Assembly (NCBI RefSeq): GCF_003048375.1
Contig: NZ_CP021642.1
Location: 1,556,527 to 1,620,526 of the forward strand
Reading direction: 5' to 3'
DNA from: Campylobacter concisus
GTDB lineage: Bacteria > Campylobacterota > Campylobacteria > Campylobacterales > Campylobacteraceae
Length of the DNA: 64,000 nt
The notes under the pieces are model-generated. The model had not been told where the DNA came from. It did not search any database and saw only the letters and a list, made by a program, of their open reading frames with translations. The translations under genes and the position numbers were made by a program. Positions 4,577-13,542 of the stretch are shown one piece after another (positions within the stretch are counted from its first letter, which is position 1; each line of letters starts with the position of its first letter).

Positions 4577-5092
4577 ATGCGAGCGCAGATAGAGCCTGAC
4601 TTTGAGAGTGCTAGAAAAAAGTATGATGAAATTTTGGAGCAAATTTTAGCCTACACCGACTATTGCGACGAATTTGGCGATGAGGACGGCGAAGAGTACC
4701 GCAAAGTAGAGCAGCGTCTAGCCAAGATAAGCGGCAAAGATATGAGTAAATTTAGCCTGCACGAGTGGTGGGAGGCCGAGGGCGCTGAAAATCTCGCCTT
4801 TGACATCGCTTTGCCAGAGCCAAAAGTGGTGGCTGACATAACAAAAGACGAGCTTAGCGAGATTGTGGAGCGCATGTTGGCGCCTACGCCTGAATTTGAA
4901 GATGATTTTTTAGAGGCATTTTACGCAAGAGTGACATTTGCTTGCAAGGGTGCTTATTTTGCAGAGTTTTTGAAGCTAAATTTTGCCAAAACCTTTAGCT
5001 TTGAGCTCTTTGAGCGCCGCGAGATAGAGGGCGTGATGCGTGAGCTAAGTGCTAACGAGATAGTAGAAATTTTATGGGGCAAAAGAGGATAA
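4577..5092 (+). CDS. acidic hypothetical protein (171 aa) packed between mraY and murD
   Basis: ORF with core-like codon usage. There are 4-nt gaps to the flanking genes. No family recognised. Confidence 0.55.
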   Translation: MRAQIEPDFESARKKYDEILEQILAYTDYCDEFGDEDGEEYRKVEQRLAKISGKDMSKFSLHEWWEAEGAENLAFDIALPEPKVVADITKDELSEIVERMLAPTPEFEDDFLEAFYARVTFACKGAYFAEFLKLNFAKTFSFELFERREIEGVMRELSANEIVEILWGKRG

Positions 5093-6463: not shown

Positions 6464-9400
6464 ATGCCAATCACCCCTAGAAATGATGCAAATTTTAAAG
6501 AAAACTTAATAGATATCATCAAACTATCATATAGCGCCGACATCAATAAGCCTTTCATCTCTGGTGACAAGCTACTTATGGGCTATAGCTTTAGTCTAAA
6601 AGACGATCTAGACACGATATGCACTCAAATTTATGGTGCTAGCAAAGCAAAAGTGATCGAGGCTATTAGAAAAACCATAACCAACACTACAACAAAAACC
6701 GTGGTTTCAAAGATAGATGCAGAAAAGCTTTTTAACGATATAAATAATGCTGCAAGGGTTGCTTACGCAAAGGCATCTGGCAGCGCTGGCGCAGAGTTGC
6801 CTGAGTTTAAATTTAGCCAAGATGAGCAGTTAAATGCCATTTTAGAGTCAAAGCTAAAGCCACTAGCGGCTGATATAAAAGAGAAGCTAAGAGGCTCGTC
6901 GCTGGCAATTTTAGAAGAGGTCAAGCTCACTTCATATGTGGCGTCTAATGTTTCAAAAGAGCACGTCGCACTCCTAGCCCTGCTTCACATAAGTAGCAAG
7001 AAAAATATCGACCCAGCTTTAGCAAGCTATATCAAGAGCAAAAGTCGCTTTAAAGCGTGGTTTTGGCTTGCTTTCGAGAGCTTTAGCGGCGATAATCCAC
7101 ATAACCTTAAACTTTTAAGAAAAAAGATCTCAGCTCAGTTTGGCCTTTATGAGTCAGACGAAAACAACAAAGCTCTAAACGACACGTCTAGCGCGGCTAG
7201 CATGGAGCGCGTCAGCTTTGGTGAGTGCATAGATATCTTTACTCACCTAAATATCTCTAAAGCTATGTATGTAACAAAAGACAAAAACGGCAAAGAGCAC
7301 AAAGAAGACGTCACACACTTAGAATTTATGCAAAAAGACAAAGAGAGATCAAACAGCACCGATTCAAAGTGTGAGGGGCTGTTTAAGCCATTTGCTGATA
7401 AGCTAAATTCTCTTTTAGCCTCTCAAACATCAAAGAAATTTAGCACTGAAAATATCTACTGCGTAAATTTAACCTCCTCTTCTACGTCTAACGCTTCAAG
7501 GATAAATAAGCTCTTAAAAAGAAGAGAAGAAGAGCTTTATAAACAAGAGGATATGCTCATACTCTGCCCTATAAAGACTGCTACTCCTATTAGGATATTT
7601 CAGCCTAAAAAGAGCAACTTTACCATCGTGCTAGCCAGCCAAAGCGAATTTGACTGCAGCGAGCTAAACCCAAAAGAGCTAAATCCTAGCAGACCAAACT
7701 ATGGCAAGCTAAATTTATGCGAGCTAATACTCACTGACTTTAAATTTGACTCTTATGAGAAAGAGAACAAAGGCGCTTCAGCTGATAGAGATATCAAATT
7801 TAAAAACGCAAAGACAAAGTCAGATAGTGTGATCCTTTATAAAGAAAACGATGATGGCAAAGATGATAAAAACAAGACAAAGGGCGCTTGCTTTACTAGC
7901 ATAAGACAAAGTAGCGATGAGATAGAGTACAAGCTAGAAGATGGTGTCGTAAAGATGAGCCACTTCCCCCTCCCCTCATCTAAAGACGAATATCTAAATT
8001 TCAACCTTCTAAATTTCGCTAAGGAGAATAACTTTACCCTTAGAGATGATAAAGACTCAGCTATGTTTGATATGAAGCTTCGTCTAGCTCTTGGTAATAA
8101 TGCAGAACCTACATCAACATCTAGCTCAAGCCTTGCTCTAACACTAAATAATCTCATCATTGAAAACGAAAAAGGTGAAGCTAGTGATATAGATAAGATA
8201 TATCTTCACCACTGCGGTGATAAAAATATATATGAGAGTACATCTTTAGTTAAAAATAAAGACTCTGATATCAAAAACTCATATACAGCTACATTTAATA
8301 TCCCTATAGATAGAAATGACAAGAAAGATACTAAGCTTATAGTCTATTCAAGTGATCTAAGCAAAATTTATGATACCAAAGGGATACATGCCTACACTGG
8401 TACAGCTATCATATCTATAGGATATAAAGATAAAAGTGGTGGTAGCTTTAGCTATACAAACAAGGTATCTTTAAGAGATATAACAGATCATATAGTAAAT
8501 GTAGTCTCTGATAGTGAGTATCCATTTAAGACAAATGAAGAGATAAGTTTAAAGGCTATATATAAACAAGAAAAAGGTAGTAAGAGGTATAAAGAGGTAC
8601 TTTGGGGATATAAGGTCATAAAAACCATAGAGTATAACGAAGTATCTAAATCAAATCCTAAAGATGTGGTAGAGCTAAAAGATAAAAAGGGTAAAGAGAT
8701 AAGATTTAAAATTTCAGATCTTATAAAAAAAGATGATCTAGAGAGGCTAAAGCAAGGTGGTCATACTATAGTATTTTTTGCATATCTTGAAGGTGAGAGT
8801 GATAAATTTAAATATCAAAGCGTATATGGTAAAAACCATATAAGGATAGATATAAAGATACCTTTATATATTAAATTTAAAGATGATAAGCTCATCATAT
8901 ATGAGTTTGAGCATGCTATAAAAGAGAAGAGCTTTAAAGCTAGTCTAAATCATGATGATGCCTTAGTAAATAAAAGTGGCTACTTATATATAAATAAAGA
9001 TATGTCAGCACAGGATATAAATATCTATGAAGATGACAAACTTACTAAAGAGCTAAAGAGTGAAGATAGTACAAATAAGAGATATCAAATTTACATAGAT
9101 GAAGCAAATTCCACAAACAATCAAAACCCAAGCAACACAAACCAAACAGGTCAAACAAAGATAAACCAAGATACCAAGTATGGTATCAATCTACTAAGCA
9201 AAGATAATATGAATAGCTTTATCAACTCTTTTAATGAGTCAAAGAGCATAACAAGAGTAGATAAGGGTATGTGGGTGGATGGGGATAGAGAAGCAAATGT
9301 TTTAATAGAGATCAAAGACTATCCTTTTACGCTAAGTATGCTAAAGCAGGTATTTACCAATATAAAAACAAATCAAGAATATATCTTGCAAGAGATGGTG

Positions 9401-10099
9401 GATGAGTTAAATAGAAGAGATGATGAAGATGGAATTCAAATGTATGTAAAATATAAGCTTGATACTAGAAATAGATTGGAGCATTTTTTTGGGCAATGCT
9501 TTGTAGAGGCAAAGACAACAAAAGGTGATTTTACTTTAGAAGAAGAACTGGGGAAATTTACAGAGAATAATATAATTAGCCATAGAGGCAAAGCCAGATT
9601 AGAAGAAGCCAAAAAACTATATCCGCAATATTATGACAAGACAGATCCTTCAAAATGGGCAAAATTTGTTGGTAACGCTATGTACTCTGATCGTGGAAAG
9701 GGTTATTTGGGTAATGATGGTGGCGATGATGGATTTAATTTTAGAGGTAGAGGAATTAAGCAACTTACTGGAAAATTTAACTATAAAGATTTCAACAAAT
9801 ATGCGCATAATAATTATTGGCTAGATGAAGAAGTAAATTTTGTAAATTCACCAGATTTATTAATTTCAGATGGAAAATATGCTCTAGTCTCTGCTGCATA
9901 TTTTTGGACTATAGAAAGACCAAAGCCTAAAAAATATCGTCTTTATGAAATAGCTGATGAAAGTAAAGCAGATTCGGACAATAGCGATATAGTAGAACGT
10001 ATAACTGCTGTTATAAATCCACAAAAACTTAGTCTTGAGCAGAGAAAAGAAGCCTATAAACGCATAAAAACAGCAAATGTGTTTAAAATATTTCAGTAA
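6464..10099 (+). CDS. giant (1211 aa) protein with no signal peptide and a C-terminal GH19 family (chitinase/endolysin-type lysozyme) catalytic domain; putative secreted cell-wall hydrolase effector
   Basis: Long uninterrupted ORF with RBS. C-terminal residues match GH19 signatures from memory: HFFGQCFVEAK vs FLAQTSHETTG; RGRGIKQLTGKFNYKDF vs YGRGPIQLSWNYNYG; NSPDLLISDGKYALVSAAYFWTIERPKP vs [29 protein letters not shown]. The N-terminal ~960 aa are K/D/N-rich with no recognisable domain. Confidence 0.75.
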   Translation: MPITPRNDANFKENLIDIIKLSYSADINKPFISGDKLLMGYSFSLKDDLDTICTQIYGASKAKVIEAIRKTITNTTTKTVVSKIDAEKLFNDINNAARVAYAKASGSAGAELPEFKFSQDEQLNAILESKLKPLAADIKEKLRGSSLAILEEVKLTSYVASNVSKEHVALLALLHISSKKNIDPALASYIKSKSRFKAWFWLAFESFSGDNPHNLKLLRKKISAQFGLYESDENNKALNDTSSAASMERVSFGECIDIFTHLNISKAMYVTKDKNGKEHKEDVTHLEFMQKDKERSNSTDSKCEGLFKPFADKLNSLLASQTSKKFSTENIYCVNLTSSSTSNASRINKLLKRREEELYKQEDMLILCPIKTATPIRIFQPKKSNFTIVLASQSEFDCSELNPKELNPSRPNYGKLNLCELILTDFKFDSYEKENKGASADRDIKFKNAKTKSDSVILYKENDDGKDDKNKTKGACFTSIRQSSDEIEYKLEDGVVKMSHFPLPSSKDEYLNFNLLNFAKENNFTLRDDKDSAMFDMKLRLALGNNAEPTSTSSSSLALTLNNLIIENEKGEASDIDKIYLHHCGDKNIYESTSLVKNKDSDIKNSYTATFNIPIDRNDKKDTKLIVYSSDLSKIYDTKGIHAYTGTAIISIGYKDKSGGSFSYTNKVSLRDITDHIVNVVSDSEYPFKTNEEISLKAIYKQEKGSKRYKEVLWGYKVIKTIEYNEVSKSNPKDVVELKDKKGKEIRFKISDLIKKDDLERLKQGGHTIVFFAYLEGESDKFKYQSVYGKNHIRIDIKIPLYIKFKDDKLIIYEFEHAIKEKSFKASLNHDDALVNKSGYLYINKDMSAQDINIYEDDKLTKELKSEDSTNKRYQIYIDEANSTNNQNPSNTNQTGQTKINQDTKYGINLLSKDNMNSFINSFNESKSITRVDKGMWVDGDREANVLIEIKDYPFTLSMLKQVFTNIKTNQEYILQEMVDELNRRDDEDGIQMYVKYKLDTRNRLEHFFGQCFVEAKTTKGDFTLEEELGKFTENNIISHRGKARLEEAKKLYPQYYDKTDPSKWAKFVGNAMYSDRGKGYLGNDGGDDGFNFRGRGIKQLTGKFNYKDFNKYAHNNYWLDEEVNFVNSPDLLISDGKYALVSAAYFWTIERPKPKKYRLYEIADESKADSDNSDIVERITAVINPQKLSLEQRKEAYKRIKTANVFKIFQ

Positions 10100-10108
10100 G
10101 GGAATAGA

Positions 10109-10900
10109 ATGAAATTTAAAATTATATTGTTAGCCCTAATTGCTAGTTTAAATTTAAGCGCTTTTGAGCCTTTAACCCCTGAAAATGCTATCAATAAATT
10201 TAGTAATGATTTTTACCAACTAAATGATTATGATTCAAGCCCTTGGAGAGACTACGGTACAAAGAGTAAACCAAGCTTTGCTTGCTATGACACCAAAGGA
10301 AAGTATAAATTTAAAAAATACTCTTTAGAAGACTTTATATGCCAGTCAGACTATAACTCTTTTAGGGATAACTATTTTGCTGATATTTATAATCTAATAA
10401 TAAAAGAAGCTCCAAATTTAAAAGAAAAAGCTCAAAAGATAGCTAGAGATAGGATAGCTAAAACTCAAAAAGAGTGTATCAGATACTCCAAAAAAGAGTA
10501 TGACTATAGCTTTGTTGCTAAATCAGCATTTTTTGTATCTGAAAGTATCTACTGCATAAAGAATTTCTATAGAGAGTATACTGCTAAGCTATCTTTAATG
10601 CTTTACGAGAACGATAAAGAGCTATTTAGTAGAATTTACGGTGAAGATTACCACAAATTTAAAGAGGTATTTGAAGATACTTTAAAATATGTACCGATAG
10701 AAAATGGTAGCATGCCAAGAGATGTAAAAAGAACTGAAATAAACAATGACTTTTTACAAAAATACAAAAGTTACCACTATGATGACGACTACCCACAGAT
10801 AGATGACATGTTATATATCATGCTCGTGCAATACTCACTCATTGATAAAAATGGCCATTTAGTTTTACCTGAAAATAGAAAAAACGATGTCAAAAACTAG
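10109..10900 (+). CDS. exported hypothetical protein (263 aa), Cys-containing
   Basis: N-terminal signal-like segment MKFKIILLALIASLNLSAF. Starts 9 nt after the giant ORF's stop. Confidence 0.6.
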   Translation: MKFKIILLALIASLNLSAFEPLTPENAINKFSNDFYQLNDYDSSPWRDYGTKSKPSFACYDTKGKYKFKKYSLEDFICQSDYNSFRDNYFADIYNLIIKEAPNLKEKAQKIARDRIAKTQKECIRYSKKEYDYSFVAKSAFFVSESIYCIKNFYREYTAKLSLMLYENDKELFSRIYGEDYHKFKEVFEDTLKYVPIENGSMPRDVKRTEINNDFLQKYKSYHYDDDYPQIDDMLYIMLVQYSLIDKNGHLVLPENRKNDVKN

Positions 10901-11363
10901 ATTTTTATACTTATTGCTACTTTTAGCTATATTTTCTAATGCTCAAAACTTAAATATAGAAACATATAGCAAGGATAACAAATGCTCCATAAGCATAAAT
11001 GATGAAGAGATATATAGCAGAGAGTGCGAGTATGAGCTTGAACCAAATTTAATATTTTATACCAAAGTTAATAGCAGCGAAGTGTGGATATTTCAAGACA
11101 TACAAAACTATGCTGCTTGCAATGGACACGGGCCTTTGAGAATTTTTGAAAAGAAAGATGACGACAAGATAAAATTTCAAGGCGAGATAGATTGGTGCGC
11201 GGGTGTGCCATTTTTTGAAGTCAGTGATAGAGGCATCTTGATAATAGACAAACCACACAAAAATGCACTAACCAACAACGGCGACCCAAATTTTAAAGGT
11301 AGCGGGAAACTATCTGACGAAAGCAAATATAAATTTGAGAATGGAAAGATCAAAAAGATATAG
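10887..11363 (+). CDS. exported hypothetical protein (158 aa)
   Basis: Signal-like N-terminus MSKTRFLYLLLLLAIFSNAQN. Overlaps the upstream ORF by 14 nt. Confidence 0.55.
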   Translation: MSKTRFLYLLLLLAIFSNAQNLNIETYSKDNKCSISINDEEIYSRECEYELEPNLIFYTKVNSSEVWIFQDIQNYAACNGHGPLRIFEKKDDDKIKFQGEIDWCAGVPFFEVSDRGILIIDKPHKNALTNNGDPNFKGSGKLSDESKYKFENGKIKKI

Positions 11364-11415
11364 TTTTGCCTTTGTTAAATAGATATAATGCGGTTAAAAA
11401 AGCACGGACATAGGT

Positions 11416-11781
11416 ATGACAAACAAGATAGTTGTTTTTTATTTTATAGCACTAGGCTTTATAGCGCATAACGCCTACGCAAAAAATATAAATTTAACGG
11501 GGATTTACAAGAATGAGTCTTGTAATATTTCAATAGAAATAACGAAAAATACCAATAAAGCGAAGTATTTTTACAAGATAGTGGAGAATAATCAGACAAA
11601 ATCACAAGGCTATATATCAAGCATAAAAAGCAACGGCGAAGGTGGATTTTATATAAAATTAAAAAAGATTGACGGGATGTATGAAAATGGTAGCATAGTC
11701 ATACAAAACTACGGAAACTCTATGAGCAAGTATATTTATTTTGAAGATTGCGATAGTAAATACTTAAAATTTGATAAATGA
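11416..11781 (+). CDS. exported hypothetical protein (121 aa)
   Basis: Signal-like N-terminus MTNKIVVFYFIALGFIAHNAYA. Confidence 0.55.
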   Translation: MTNKIVVFYFIALGFIAHNAYAKNINLTGIYKNESCNISIEITKNTNKAKYFYKIVENNQTKSQGYISSIKSNGEGGFYIKLKKIDGMYENGSIVIQNYGNSMSKYIYFEDCDSKYLKFDK

Positions 11782-11836
11782 CCCAGTGTGTGATTTTGTA
11801 ATTACTATTTCGCAGTAAATTTTAAAAGAAAGAACT

Positions 11837-12319
11837 ATGGTAGTTTTTAGATTTTTTATTTTAATCAATTTATTCTTTGCATTTATCAAGGCTGATGAGT
11901 TCGGGTATTACTATGAAAATGAAAAATTTTTAATAGCTATTCTGATGTTCGAATGTGAGGGTGACATACATTGTACAAATGGTGGTTATTTTGGGGTAAA
12001 TAAAAGAAATAGCAAAAGTTTAGAAATTTTATCAAAACCAACACCAATAAAAAATAGTATAAATGAGCGCTTGATGGGGTATAAATTTAGAAATTCAAAC
12101 TACATGTATGAAATTTATGGCGACATAATGTCTGGTGGAAAAATGTATTTGAACGTTTTTAAGCAAGGAAAAACTATTTTTAAAAGCGATGATTTACAAC
12201 AGATAGAACAAGAAGAATTCCTATCCAAACTTAAAGAAATAGATAAAAGGCTACCTGTGAGCTTTGAAAAATTTTATAAGAAGCTACAAAACAAATACAA
12301 AAATGAAAACCATCAATAA
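11837..12319 (+). CDS. exported hypothetical protein (160 aa)
   Basis: Hydrophobic N-terminus MVVFRFFILINLFFAFIKA. Confidence 0.5.
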   Translation: MVVFRFFILINLFFAFIKADEFGYYYENEKFLIAILMFECEGDIHCTNGGYFGVNKRNSKSLEILSKPTPIKNSINERLMGYKFRNSNYMYEIYGDIMSGGKMYLNVFKQGKTIFKSDDLQQIEQEEFLSKLKEIDKRLPVSFEKFYKKLQNKYKNENHQ

Positions 12320-13010
12320 AATAATTCTTTTTTATCTAGTGCTATTTATGTCGCTAGCTCTTTTTGCAGAGCAAACCACCAAGCAGTGCTTTAGTAGATA
12401 TTTAGATAGCAAGGCTCATTTTATCAACGATGACAAATTTGATAAATTTGATTTTTATGGCATTATAGCTGACACTCGTACAAAATTTTTGGGCTATATC
12501 GGAGCTGATTATCACAGGCTACATATAAATTTTAACAGCGTCAAAAAGGTCTCAAAGACAAAATATATAGTATCTGGTGAATATAAAATAACCGCAGAGG
12601 CTCGCCCATTTAACGGCGAAATTCAAATAACCAAAATAAAAAAGTATATAAATTTAAACTACAGCGTTGATGACTTTATAAAAGGCAAGATCAAAGCCCA
12701 AGGCATAGCCTTAGCGAGCTATATCTTAAAAGGCGATGGAGGTTTTCAAGCCAAAGGTCAAATGCTCATAAAATGGTACATTAATAGCGATCAAAGACTA
12801 GCGTATGACGATATATCAGAAGATGAGGATATGTACGCAAATGATCTATTTTGTGGAGAGTGCAAGGTGGGCAAGGCGCAAGCAAAACCATGCGCATGGG
12901 GGCATTACAGGATACCAAACAGCGGCGATCTTGATGTGGGAGTTGGGGAATTTAGCCCCAATACAAAATATCTTAACAACGGCTGGAGCGACTTTAACAA
13001 GGATGAATAA
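12303..13010 (+). CDS. exported hypothetical protein (236 aa; start revised from 12264 to MKTINK)
   Basis: Signal-like ILFYLVLFMSLALFA. Overlaps the upstream ORF by 17 nt. Confidence 0.55.
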   Translation: MKTINKIILFYLVLFMSLALFAEQTTKQCFSRYLDSKAHFINDDKFDKFDFYGIIADTRTKFLGYIGADYHRLHINFNSVKKVSKTKYIVSGEYKITAEARPFNGEIQITKIKKYINLNYSVDDFIKGKIKAQGIALASYILKGDGGFQAKGQMLIKWYINSDQRLAYDDISEDEDMYANDLFCGECKVGKAQAKPCAWGHYRIPNSGDLDVGVGEFSPNTKYLNNGWSDFNKDE

Positions 13011-13542
13011 ATTTTCTATAAAAAGCTTTTTAATGCTATCTATAATTTTAGGCTTTCTAAATTTAGCTGCTAGCGAAAATTTACCACGCATAACGAGTGT
13101 AGATAATATCAAGGTTGGTAAAAAACTAGCTTTACATAACGTCAAATACTTCTTAGATGGCGAAAAGGCAAGCTTTATAAATTTAGACAAAACGCAAATA
13201 ATGACGCTTGATTTTTGCTGTGGAGGTAACGGCGAAATTCAAAGGATAAACGTCAAATTTTATGATAAAAATTTGACTAAAGATTATATAAATTTCAGCA
13301 AGATAAAAGAATTTACTACAAATTCTGGTATCAAGCTTGGCGACAAACAAGAGCAAATTTTAAATAAGCTAGGCAAGCCAAACGACCTACTAGAGGAAAA
13401 TGACACAACTACTGTTACCTATACCACCAAGCAAAGTAAGAGCCGCCTCTTGCAAGAATTTGACATGCCGCTCTACTATGAGAAATTTATCTTTTATGGC
13501 GATGTTTTAAAAGAGTATGAATTTGGCTTTGAGTATCCGTGA
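13003..13542 (+). CDS. exported hypothetical protein (179 aa; start revised to MNKFSIK)
   Basis: Signal-like SFLMLSIILGFLNLAAS. Overlaps the upstream ORF by 8 nt. The 12805 start in the ORF track overlaps the previous gene out of frame. Confidence 0.55.
   Translation: MNKFSIKSFLMLSIILGFLNLAASENLPRITSVDNIKVGKKLALHNVKYFLDGEKASFINLDKTQIMTLDFCCGGNGEIQRINVKFYDKNLTKDYINFSKIKEFTTNSGIKLGDKQEQILNKLGKPNDLLEENDTTTVTYTTKQSKSRLLQEFDMPLYYEKFIFYGDVLKEYEFGFEYP

Follow-up and report, generated by a model that had tools for sequence, protein, structure and literature searches.

A predicted toxin locus between murD and fdhD

In the 64,000-nucleotide (nt) stretch of the Campylobacter concisus chromosome analysed here (contig NZ_CP021642.1, positions 1,556,527-1,620,526; hereafter the window), an open reading frame (ORF) of 1211 amino acids (aa) occupies positions 6464..10099. 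Judged from its translation and its homologs, the whole gene is predicted to encode a polymorphic peptidoglycan-hydrolase toxin, composed of a long carrier and a C-terminal tail of the GH19 type. The gene order is mraY, a 171-aa ORF, murD, the 1211-aa toxin gene, a series of small ORFs and fdhD, and all features described below between positions 6464 and 13542 lie on the plus strand. The original prediction, in which a non-classical delivery or targeting module was proposed for this protein, dealt with positions 6464-9355, which correspond to aa 1-964.

When aa 1-960 were scanned against Pfam (E<=1) and NCBIfam, nothing was matched, and a phmmer search of the sequences in the PDB gave nothing meaningful. 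The sole Pfam match of the 1211-aa protein is a sub-threshold GH19 match at aa 1090-1158, and NCBIfam gives none. The protein starts with a hydrophilic stretch (MPITPRNDANFKENLIDIIK), and nowhere along its length does a 19-aa Kyte-Doolittle mean exceed 1.01; therefore, by hydropathy, the protein has no Sec or Tat signal and no transmembrane segment that could serve as a membrane anchor, in agreement with the earlier statement that a Sec signal is lacking. The content of K, D and N in aa 1-960 is 27.9%, against a median of 20.0% among the 33 ORFs that were called in the window with a length of at least 250 aa; this comparison set includes the toxin ORF itself, and its maximum is also 27.9%. The K/D/N-rich composition described originally is thus borne out. 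The label of low complexity attached to the same region was rejected, given its normal entropy (no 30-aa segment falls below 3.0 bits, and the local mean is 3.50 against a 33-ORF median of 3.59) and its predicted fold.

Architecture of the carrier

The AlphaFold2 model of aa 1-960, built on an alignment of 28 sequences, is folded and multidomain, with a mean predicted local distance difference test score (pLDDT) of 79, a predicted template modelling score (pTM) of 0.71 and 69 of the 960 residues below a pLDDT of 50. A separate model of aa 1-236 reached a pLDDT of 63, below that of the same region in the full model, and the full model was used. The carrier begins with a GH24 (T4/P22-type) lysozyme-like domain (aa 1-235, positions 6464..7168), which contains a long helical insertion and has lost its catalytic triad. 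Next comes an alpha/beta domain (aa 236-360, positions 7169..7543), delimited by invariant alignment columns and secondary structure, in which the motifs F..EC.D.F..LN, ENIYC and N.S.INK.L are invariant in the family. It is here that homology to the vgrG-linked paralogs with another N-terminus begins, P0129 and P0133 matching from query aa ~237-240.

The most widely conserved part of the family, according to the AlphaFold2 model and BLASTP, is a beta-strand-rich core (aa 361-880, positions 7544..9103), marked by the motifs NFAKEN, YLH[NH]C.DK, SYTA.F, YKEV.W.YKVIK, FFAYL and YGK.H.R. A two-copy ELNP(K) micro-duplication, SELNPKELNP (aa 399-408, positions 7658..7687), lies within it; the tandem repeat noticed in the original prediction therefore exists, with letters other than the KELNPKELNP first given. 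It falls in a 9-residue insertion that is common to the closer C. concisus relatives and absent in the paralogs of 30-40% identity, and is judged from this distribution to be a small clade-specific duplication of no evident function. The core is followed by an N/Q/T-rich linker (aa 881-903, positions 9104..9172), predicted to be disordered from its pLDDT: two 10-residue blocks in aa 881-900 have means of 37 and 30, and the segment 882-902 lies below 50. The carrier ends in a conserved junction (aa 904-950, positions 9173..9313), formed by a GINLL..N...FI..FN..K helix and the sequence DKGMWVDGDRE. The recombination breakpoint was placed here, where the identity of homologs stops, and the tail-less paralog P0128 ends just past the junction helix.

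The full model was also compared by Foldseek with the PDB and BFVD, and only generic tandem Ig/FN3 domains were returned, with a query-normalised TM-score of at most about 0.1. Of the structural checks suggested originally, modelling thus gave a folded multidomain protein and the fold search gave generic matches, which, at the level of a predicted model, are uninformative on the core and indicate no link to phages. The latter point bears on the idea that the protein might be a leftover structural component of a phage or tailocin, for example a virion-associated lysin, a tail fibre or an internal protein. The combination of a GH24 phage-type lysozyme fold with a GH19 endolysin-like tail would suit such an origin, and the structural proteins of phages commonly contain Ig-like domains in tandem. 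We nevertheless consider it highly improbable, the least credible of the explanations weighed here, since no phage genes flank the gene, the BFVD search gave only the generic matches, family members are chromosomal and confined to Campylobacter and Helicobacter, and the way in which toxin, downstream partner and orphan cassettes are arranged does not resemble that of phages.

Exchange of C-terminal tails

In a search of 5.8 billion proteins with aa 1-960, 314 matches were obtained, all named top matches being from C. concisus, and the tails of the 120 listed homologs were analysed. These homologs share 77-98% identity over carrier aa 1-~950. Their alignments mostly start at aa 1, with starts at aa 39-64 in three and at aa 271 in 8 copies. 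In the homologs with another tail, the alignment ends at aa 946-955, where identity of 90-98% breaks off sharply.

Beyond this breakpoint, at least eight unrelated tail classes were distinguished among the 120 listed homologs. The GH19-like class is the largest (53 members), followed by a lysozyme-like class named GH24 by NCBI (23), M23 peptidases (18), a class of 168 aa that matches nothing known (13), YkuD-like tails of the YkuD/Tlde1-like type (7), CHAP (2), DUF5675 (2) and a further unassigned tail of 194 aa (1 member). Pfam backs the M23, CHAP, YkuD-like and DUF5675 assignments, and GH19 weakly. The closest C. concisus homologs are named GH19, M23 or GH24 family proteins after their tail (P0073, for instance, is M23-tailed), and the C-terminal domains of more distant members are of the M23, Muramidase (PF11860) or Tlde1 (PF10908) type. 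All recognisable tails are thus, by annotation, peptidoglycan-active enzyme types. The tail of the window protein (aa 951-1211, positions 9314..10099) was assigned by phmmer against the PDB, with the phage SPN1S-type endolysin 4ok7 matching at E 1e-10, and is a predicted GH19 endolysin-like toxin domain with a muramidase or chitinase fold.

The Helicobacter cinaedi member P0146 (902 aa) has at its C-terminus a glycine-zipper-like hydrophobic segment, GGGFMGGGLGAWAGLACGPYAFVCVPTFGALGAAGGGYLG. Because of this end, the carrier family may also hold membrane-targeting tails in addition to peptidoglycan hydrolases.

The original prediction had assumed a conserved N-terminal module of a polymorphic toxin and had suggested a search of other genomes for its fusion to different C-termini. 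This search came out positive, with the tail classes described above, and the proposal of a delivery or targeting module gains support from tail swapping as well as from the paired downstream genes.

Downstream partners and proposed cassette exchange

The toxin stop codon is followed after 10 nt by a gene for a 263-aa signal-peptide protein (positions 10109..10900), the candidate cognate immunity protein of the GH19 tail. Behind it lies an array of four or five small signal-peptide ORFs (positions 10887..13542), candidate orphan immunity genes, at 10887-11363, 11416-11781, 11837-12319, ~12303-13010 and ~13003-13542. The last of these was left out of the family clustering and is included on its signal peptide and position alone. 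Sec signal peptides are present at the start of all small ORFs from 10109 to 13542, in two cases from internal starts near 12303 and 13003, which fits toxins that act in the periplasm. The ORFs listed at 12264-13010 and 12805-13542 overlap, and the internal Met starts at ~12303 and ~13003 remove the overlap; the longest-ORF coordinates are probably wrong.

Tails and downstream genes were compared in 16 window-type loci of other strains. A GH19 tail is followed by a first downstream ORF of one and the same family, c0 (~207-269 aa), in all eight loci concerned, with a gap of 7-12 nt in seven of them and of 590 nt in the eighth (L011). Tail T16 is followed by c1 (2/2 loci) and tail T18 by c5/c6 (2/2 loci), and c9 goes with tail type T28 in other strains. 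The tail type thus predicts the first downstream ORF, a covariation from which an immunity function is predicted. The order of the downstream families in the window is c0 (10109-10900), c5, c6, c13 and c9; since c5, c6 and c9 are the partners of other tails elsewhere, the window would hold one cognate partner and an array of orphan immunity genes.

In other strains, the toxin side of such exchanges is also seen. In L002, L008, L011 and L023, orphan modules of 604-636 aa stand after the GH19/c0 pair, about 0.8-1.4 kb downstream of the toxin stop, and consist of carrier aa ~498-950 with a different tail. No orphan toxin module is found in the window itself. The ratio of nonsynonymous to synonymous divergence (dN/dS) is 0.13-0.29 in all carrier segments, and the synonymous divergence (dS) between the two C. 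concisus types decreases from 2.1 (N-terminus) to 0.6 (core). The GC content falls along the gene from 40% (aa 1-235) through 38% (aa 236-360) and 33% (core) to 32% (tail and immunity array), compared with 44% in the flanking mraY-murD and fdhD regions. This gradient over 6464-13542 suggests that the exchanged cassette covers the 3' two-thirds of the gene and takes in the array behind it. Because of the dN/dS values, the drop in dS and the fall in GC, cassette exchange by homologous recombination, with the core as homology arm, is proposed. New tails and their immunity genes would be gained by recombination within the core, from aa ~500 onward, which would leave behind orphan immunity arrays and, in other strains, orphan toxin modules.

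The same evidence bears on a different role, that of a housekeeping autolysin of the mur neighbourhood, which would act on the cell's own wall with an N-terminal region that is regulatory or wall-binding. The position of the gene just downstream of mraY and murD would agree with this, as would the tails and the N-terminal fold, all of which are peptidoglycan-active enzyme types. An autolysin is, however, very unlikely, as the protein has no signal peptide or membrane anchor with which to reach the periplasm, its tail is swapped among at least eight unrelated classes in close strains, each class with a downstream signal-peptide partner of its own, orphan cassettes occur, GC is low and looks foreign in the 3' part of the gene as well as in the array behind it, and paralogs are linked to vgrG.

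The N-terminal lysozyme fold and its LprI partners

In most of the distant members of the family, the first ~220-280 aa hold the GH24 signature E-G...Y.D...T-I-G-Y-G, together with the C-lobe motif S..Y-N ... N-R-F-L-A-W ... G-I-A-K-R-R-F.E-S..F-G. The Pfam profile Phage_lysozyme (PF00959) matches the N-terminal domains of 7 of 9 aligned relatives (best E 3.3e-6) and gives no match to the window copy, so the homology of the latter to lysozymes is deduced through the family alignment. When a profile of the family N-terminal domains was compared with the PDB, an endolysin ranked top with both motif blocks aligned. Aa ~1-235 of the window protein therefore have a lysozyme fold. The original prediction had found no recognisable domain in the region, which is correct for direct profile scans only, and had pointed to a weak lysozyme-like resemblance; the segment in question (HVALL...FESF, aa 167-207) proved to be the C-terminal lobe of this GH24 lysozyme-like domain.

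According to the family alignment, the catalytic Glu, Asp and Thr are replaced by S24, S33 and L38 in the window copy. The dN/dS of the domain is 0.13-0.16, which indicates purifying selection although it is catalytically dead, and for this reason it probably serves as a peptidoglycan-binding or docking element. Retention of the fold for a role other than bulk wall lysis is also known from a polarity/stalk-positioning factor with a GH24 phage-lysozyme fold, a different protein in a different cellular context that offers an analogy only.

The GH24 triad is intact in a paralog type of ~926 aa that lacks a C-terminal tail and is 33-37% identical over aa 1-933. Directly upstream of this paralog, and ending at its start codon, lie one or two genes for proteins with a signal peptide and an LprI (lysozyme-inhibitor) domain, as seen in 13 C. 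concisus loci (L044-L051, with L048:7516-10001 among them, L054, L068, L070, L071 and L073). LprI and the ~926-aa paralog are thus a predicted effector-immunity pair in which the immunity gene is upstream. LprI-like genes also precede the family members of C. jejuni and H. cinaedi. In the C. jejuni locus (L076, CM000854.1), three paralogous LprI-like ORFs of 245-247 aa stand upstream of the family member. No LprI gene is present upstream in the window-type loci, where the upstream neighbour is murD. In the simplest reading, the ancestral effector would have used its N-terminal lysozyme as the toxin, with its immunity gene encoded upstream; the window lineage would then have lost lysozyme activity, and killing would have moved to swappable C-terminal tails with partner genes downstream.

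Family range and linkage to the type VI secretion system

Only 45 relatives of the carrier were found by a HMMER search of 1.84 billion representative proteins. In the clusters of these relatives and in a further search, the named Campylobacter members come from C. concisus, C. jejuni, C. coli, C. taeniopygiae and Campylobacter sp. CCUG 57310, and the named Helicobacter members from H. cinaedi, H. fennelliae, H. typhlonius and H. trogontum. As far as these matches reach, the carrier family is limited to Campylobacter and (enterohepatic) Helicobacter, and it is chromosomal. The locus search used a narrower alignment whose patterns left out the C. jejuni and Helicobacter clade, and nearly all C. 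concisus-complex representative genomes that it returned carry window-type genes.

Several members are neighbours of type VI secretion system (T6SS) genes. In 10 C. concisus loci, vgrG (recognised by Phage_GPD, Gp5_C and Phage_base_V) has a paralog 0.5-3 kb downstream, with 33-38% identity (aa ~130/250 to 826/935), and hcp lies upstream in seven. In one of these loci, L055, the N-terminus of the paralog is lysozyme-like, and its reading frame begins 4 nt ahead of the stop codon of the ORF behind vgrG. In the main T6SS cluster of H. cinaedi, tssM, hcp and vgrG are followed by two ORFs and a family member, then by vgrG, one ORF and a second member, and finally by another vgrG, and both members match the window carrier in BLASTP (E 6e-30 for P0193, over aa 364-776, and 1e-30). 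The C. jejuni member in CM000854.1 is directly followed by a VgrG fragment that comprises the last ~115 aa only (L076:12933-13277). Separately, tandem paralogous signal-peptide proteins of ~181-191 aa (MKQLAIIIFLITSLYSHEANC...) were observed upstream of vgrG in T6SS-linked C. concisus loci (L060:14-3262 and L055:5144-6252), and may represent another immunity array.

Since carrier homologs adjoin vgrG and hcp, the best explanation for the window gene is an orphan VgrG-dependent T6SS cargo effector. We read the ~950-aa region as the conserved carrier of a polymorphic toxin of the peptidoglycan-hydrolase kind and regard it as likely that this toxin is delivered in this way from an orphan locus, and we infer the T6SS dependence of the window copy from the linkage of its relatives. 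T6SS genes have been found in 14 of 16 complete C. concisus genomes, and strain P1CDO2 secretes Hcp (PMC7725323). Strains P3UCO1 (CP049239), P3UCB1 (CP049238) and UNSWCD are T6SS-negative. Whether the ~700-aa core is a new loading or marker domain of the T6SS in Campylobacter and Helicobacter, with the pseudo-lysozyme repurposed for peptidoglycan binding or VgrG docking, is evenly balanced in our estimate. The first ~180 aa are replaced by unrelated sequence in some vgrG-linked paralogs, and the shared core from aa ~240 is therefore the better candidate for VgrG binding.

Several observations weigh against delivery by the T6SS. The replacement of the first ~180 aa also means that docking could depend on a part of those paralogs that is missing from the window protein. 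Neither vgrG nor hcp, PAAR or adaptor genes are present at the window-type locus, which lies between murD and fdhD, and the 64-kb window contains no T6SS gene, the rest of it being housekeeping. No match to PAAR, Rhs or other T6SS markers in Pfam was obtained with the whole 1211-aa protein, and the Foldseek matches described above were generic.

These observations leave room for a polymorphic antibacterial toxin that uses another route, such as the flagellar type III export apparatus, outer-membrane vesicles, lysis or holin-like release or a type IV secretion system (T4SS), or whose carrier is itself a module for receptor binding and translocation, as in a large bacteriocin. An orphan locus in the core genome, with no T6SS gene in the 64-kb window, would agree with this, the beta-sandwich-rich body combined with a peptidoglycan-enzyme fold would also suit a receptor-binding bacteriocin, and the gene is present in nearly all C. 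concisus-complex representatives, as against T6SS genes in 14/16 complete genomes. We hold such a route to be unlikely, though less so than an autolysin or a phage remnant, as carrier homologs are set among the vgrG genes of the T6SS cluster in H. cinaedi and come after hcp-vgrG in C. concisus, and as no lysis or holin gene is evident at the locus. Furthermore, components of the type I, type III and type V secretion systems are reported to be absent from C. concisus, and the T4SS is found in only 25% of complete genomes (PMC7725323). In a related version, which we consider somewhat less probable still, the carrier would be a self-sufficient delivery module independent of the T6SS, at any rate in the orphan copies between murD and fdhD, which nearly all C. 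concisus lineages retain. Its dead lysozyme fold, together with the beta-sandwich core, would then bind the wall or a target receptor and translocate the tail, like a giant bacteriocin, or the carrier would exploit an unrecognised export route.

For the preferred reading of a T6SS cargo effector, the following mechanism is proposed. The protein would be a contact-dependent antibacterial toxin, made without a leader in the cytoplasm, whose carrier docks non-covalently on the VgrG spike. Firing of the T6SS would deliver it to the periplasm of a neighbouring cell, where the GH19 tail would cleave peptidoglycan, and the periplasmic product of 10109-10900 would protect sister cells.

Two further ORFs of the window were noticed outside the toxin gene and its array. 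The 171-aa ORF between mraY and murD (positions 4577-5092, plus strand) has no match in Pfam or NCBIfam. A 742-aa ORF on the minus strand (positions 58316-60544) has no Pfam match at E<=1e-5 and adjoins a family-2 glycosyltransferase gene (61481-63115).

Implications

C. concisus is an oral and gut pathobiont, and to our knowledge its T6SS effectors are essentially uncharacterised. The carrier family could provide a handle for finding T6SS effectors in Campylobacter and Helicobacter, and the ~700-aa core, if it is a loading or marker domain, would be usable for effector mining. At least eight kinds of tail, predicted to degrade the cell wall and accompanied by matching candidate immunity genes, are gathered in this one family, from which antagonism between strains, and repertoires of immunity, are predicted for the mouth and gut. 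In evolutionary terms, the window protein may be an example of a probable ancestral lysozyme toxin that decayed and was replaced by swappable tails, yet was kept under purifying selection.

Comparison with known systems

The kind of system, a polymorphic toxin with swappable tails, is already known. The carrier family itself, its restriction to Campylobacter and Helicobacter, the fossil lysozyme and the layout of upstream and downstream immunity genes are undescribed in the libraries and papers searched.

Parts of the family have probably been met before in surveys of Campylobacter T6SSs. Proteins with a 'lysozyme/endolysin domain' adjacent to vgrG were flagged in silico for four strains of C. 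concisus and for Campylobacter sp. CCUG 57310 (PMC9676060), and CJ488_0962 was flagged as a vgrG-adjacent protein of the same description (PMC8285248). Going by these descriptions in the survey passages, the flagged proteins are probably members or fragments of the carrier family, and P0174 from CCUG 57310 falls in the same 90%-identity cluster as the family member P0166. In those passages, only the lysozyme domain of the vgrG-proximal genes is annotated, and the ~700-aa core, the polymorphic tails and the orphan murD-fdhD locus are not mentioned (PMC9676060, PMC8285248).

Among characterised effectors, a functional counterpart is Tae17 of Acinetobacter baumannii, a VgrG17-dependent, leaderless, multidomain T6SS peptidoglycan hydrolase that is toxic only in the periplasm (PMC11796386). 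Its N-terminal domain, an Ig-like beta-sandwich, docks non-covalently on the C-terminus of the cognate VgrG; the modelled domains span residues 1-582, the purified protein is of ~67 kDa, a LysM domain is present and both enzyme domains are active (PMC11796386). The window protein is likewise leaderless and multidomain, with more than one peptidoglycan-enzyme domain. In contrast, Tae17 is about half its size and no sequence homology to the carrier was found, and in the window protein the lysozyme domain is dead and the gene is not beside vgrG.

Tails of the Tlde1 type (PF10908) link the family to a second group of effectors. Tlde1 of Salmonella, a T6SS effector with an L,D-transpeptidase fold, is itself small and single-domain and is not borne on this carrier. 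A Tlde1-type tail is carried by the vgrG-linked paralog P0133, and YkuD-like tails by 7 C. concisus window-type homologs, whereas the tail of the window protein is GH19.

A conserved N-terminus shared by T6SS effectors with varied C-terminal toxins is also the hallmark of the MIX, FIX, RIX and PAAR/Rhs-linked markers. The genes of such effectors frequently stand at orphan loci, remote from the T6SS cluster, and the immunity gene comes directly after them. These markers are shorter and found mainly in Proteobacteria such as Vibrio, whereas the window carrier spans ~950 aa, occurs only in Campylobacter and Helicobacter and contains no known Pfam T6SS domain.

The mode of tail exchange finds its counterpart in the CdiA-CT/Rhs systems, in which a sharp breakpoint, orphan modules made of a homology arm with a new toxin and immunity gene, and orphan immunity arrays are known. 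The carrier differs from these in lacking Rhs/YD repeats, the VENN and PxxxxDPxGL motifs and a two-partner secretion partner, and its secretion route would be a different one. What the carrier family has in common with them is the sharp breakpoint after a conserved junction, the orphan modules and the orphan immunity arrays.

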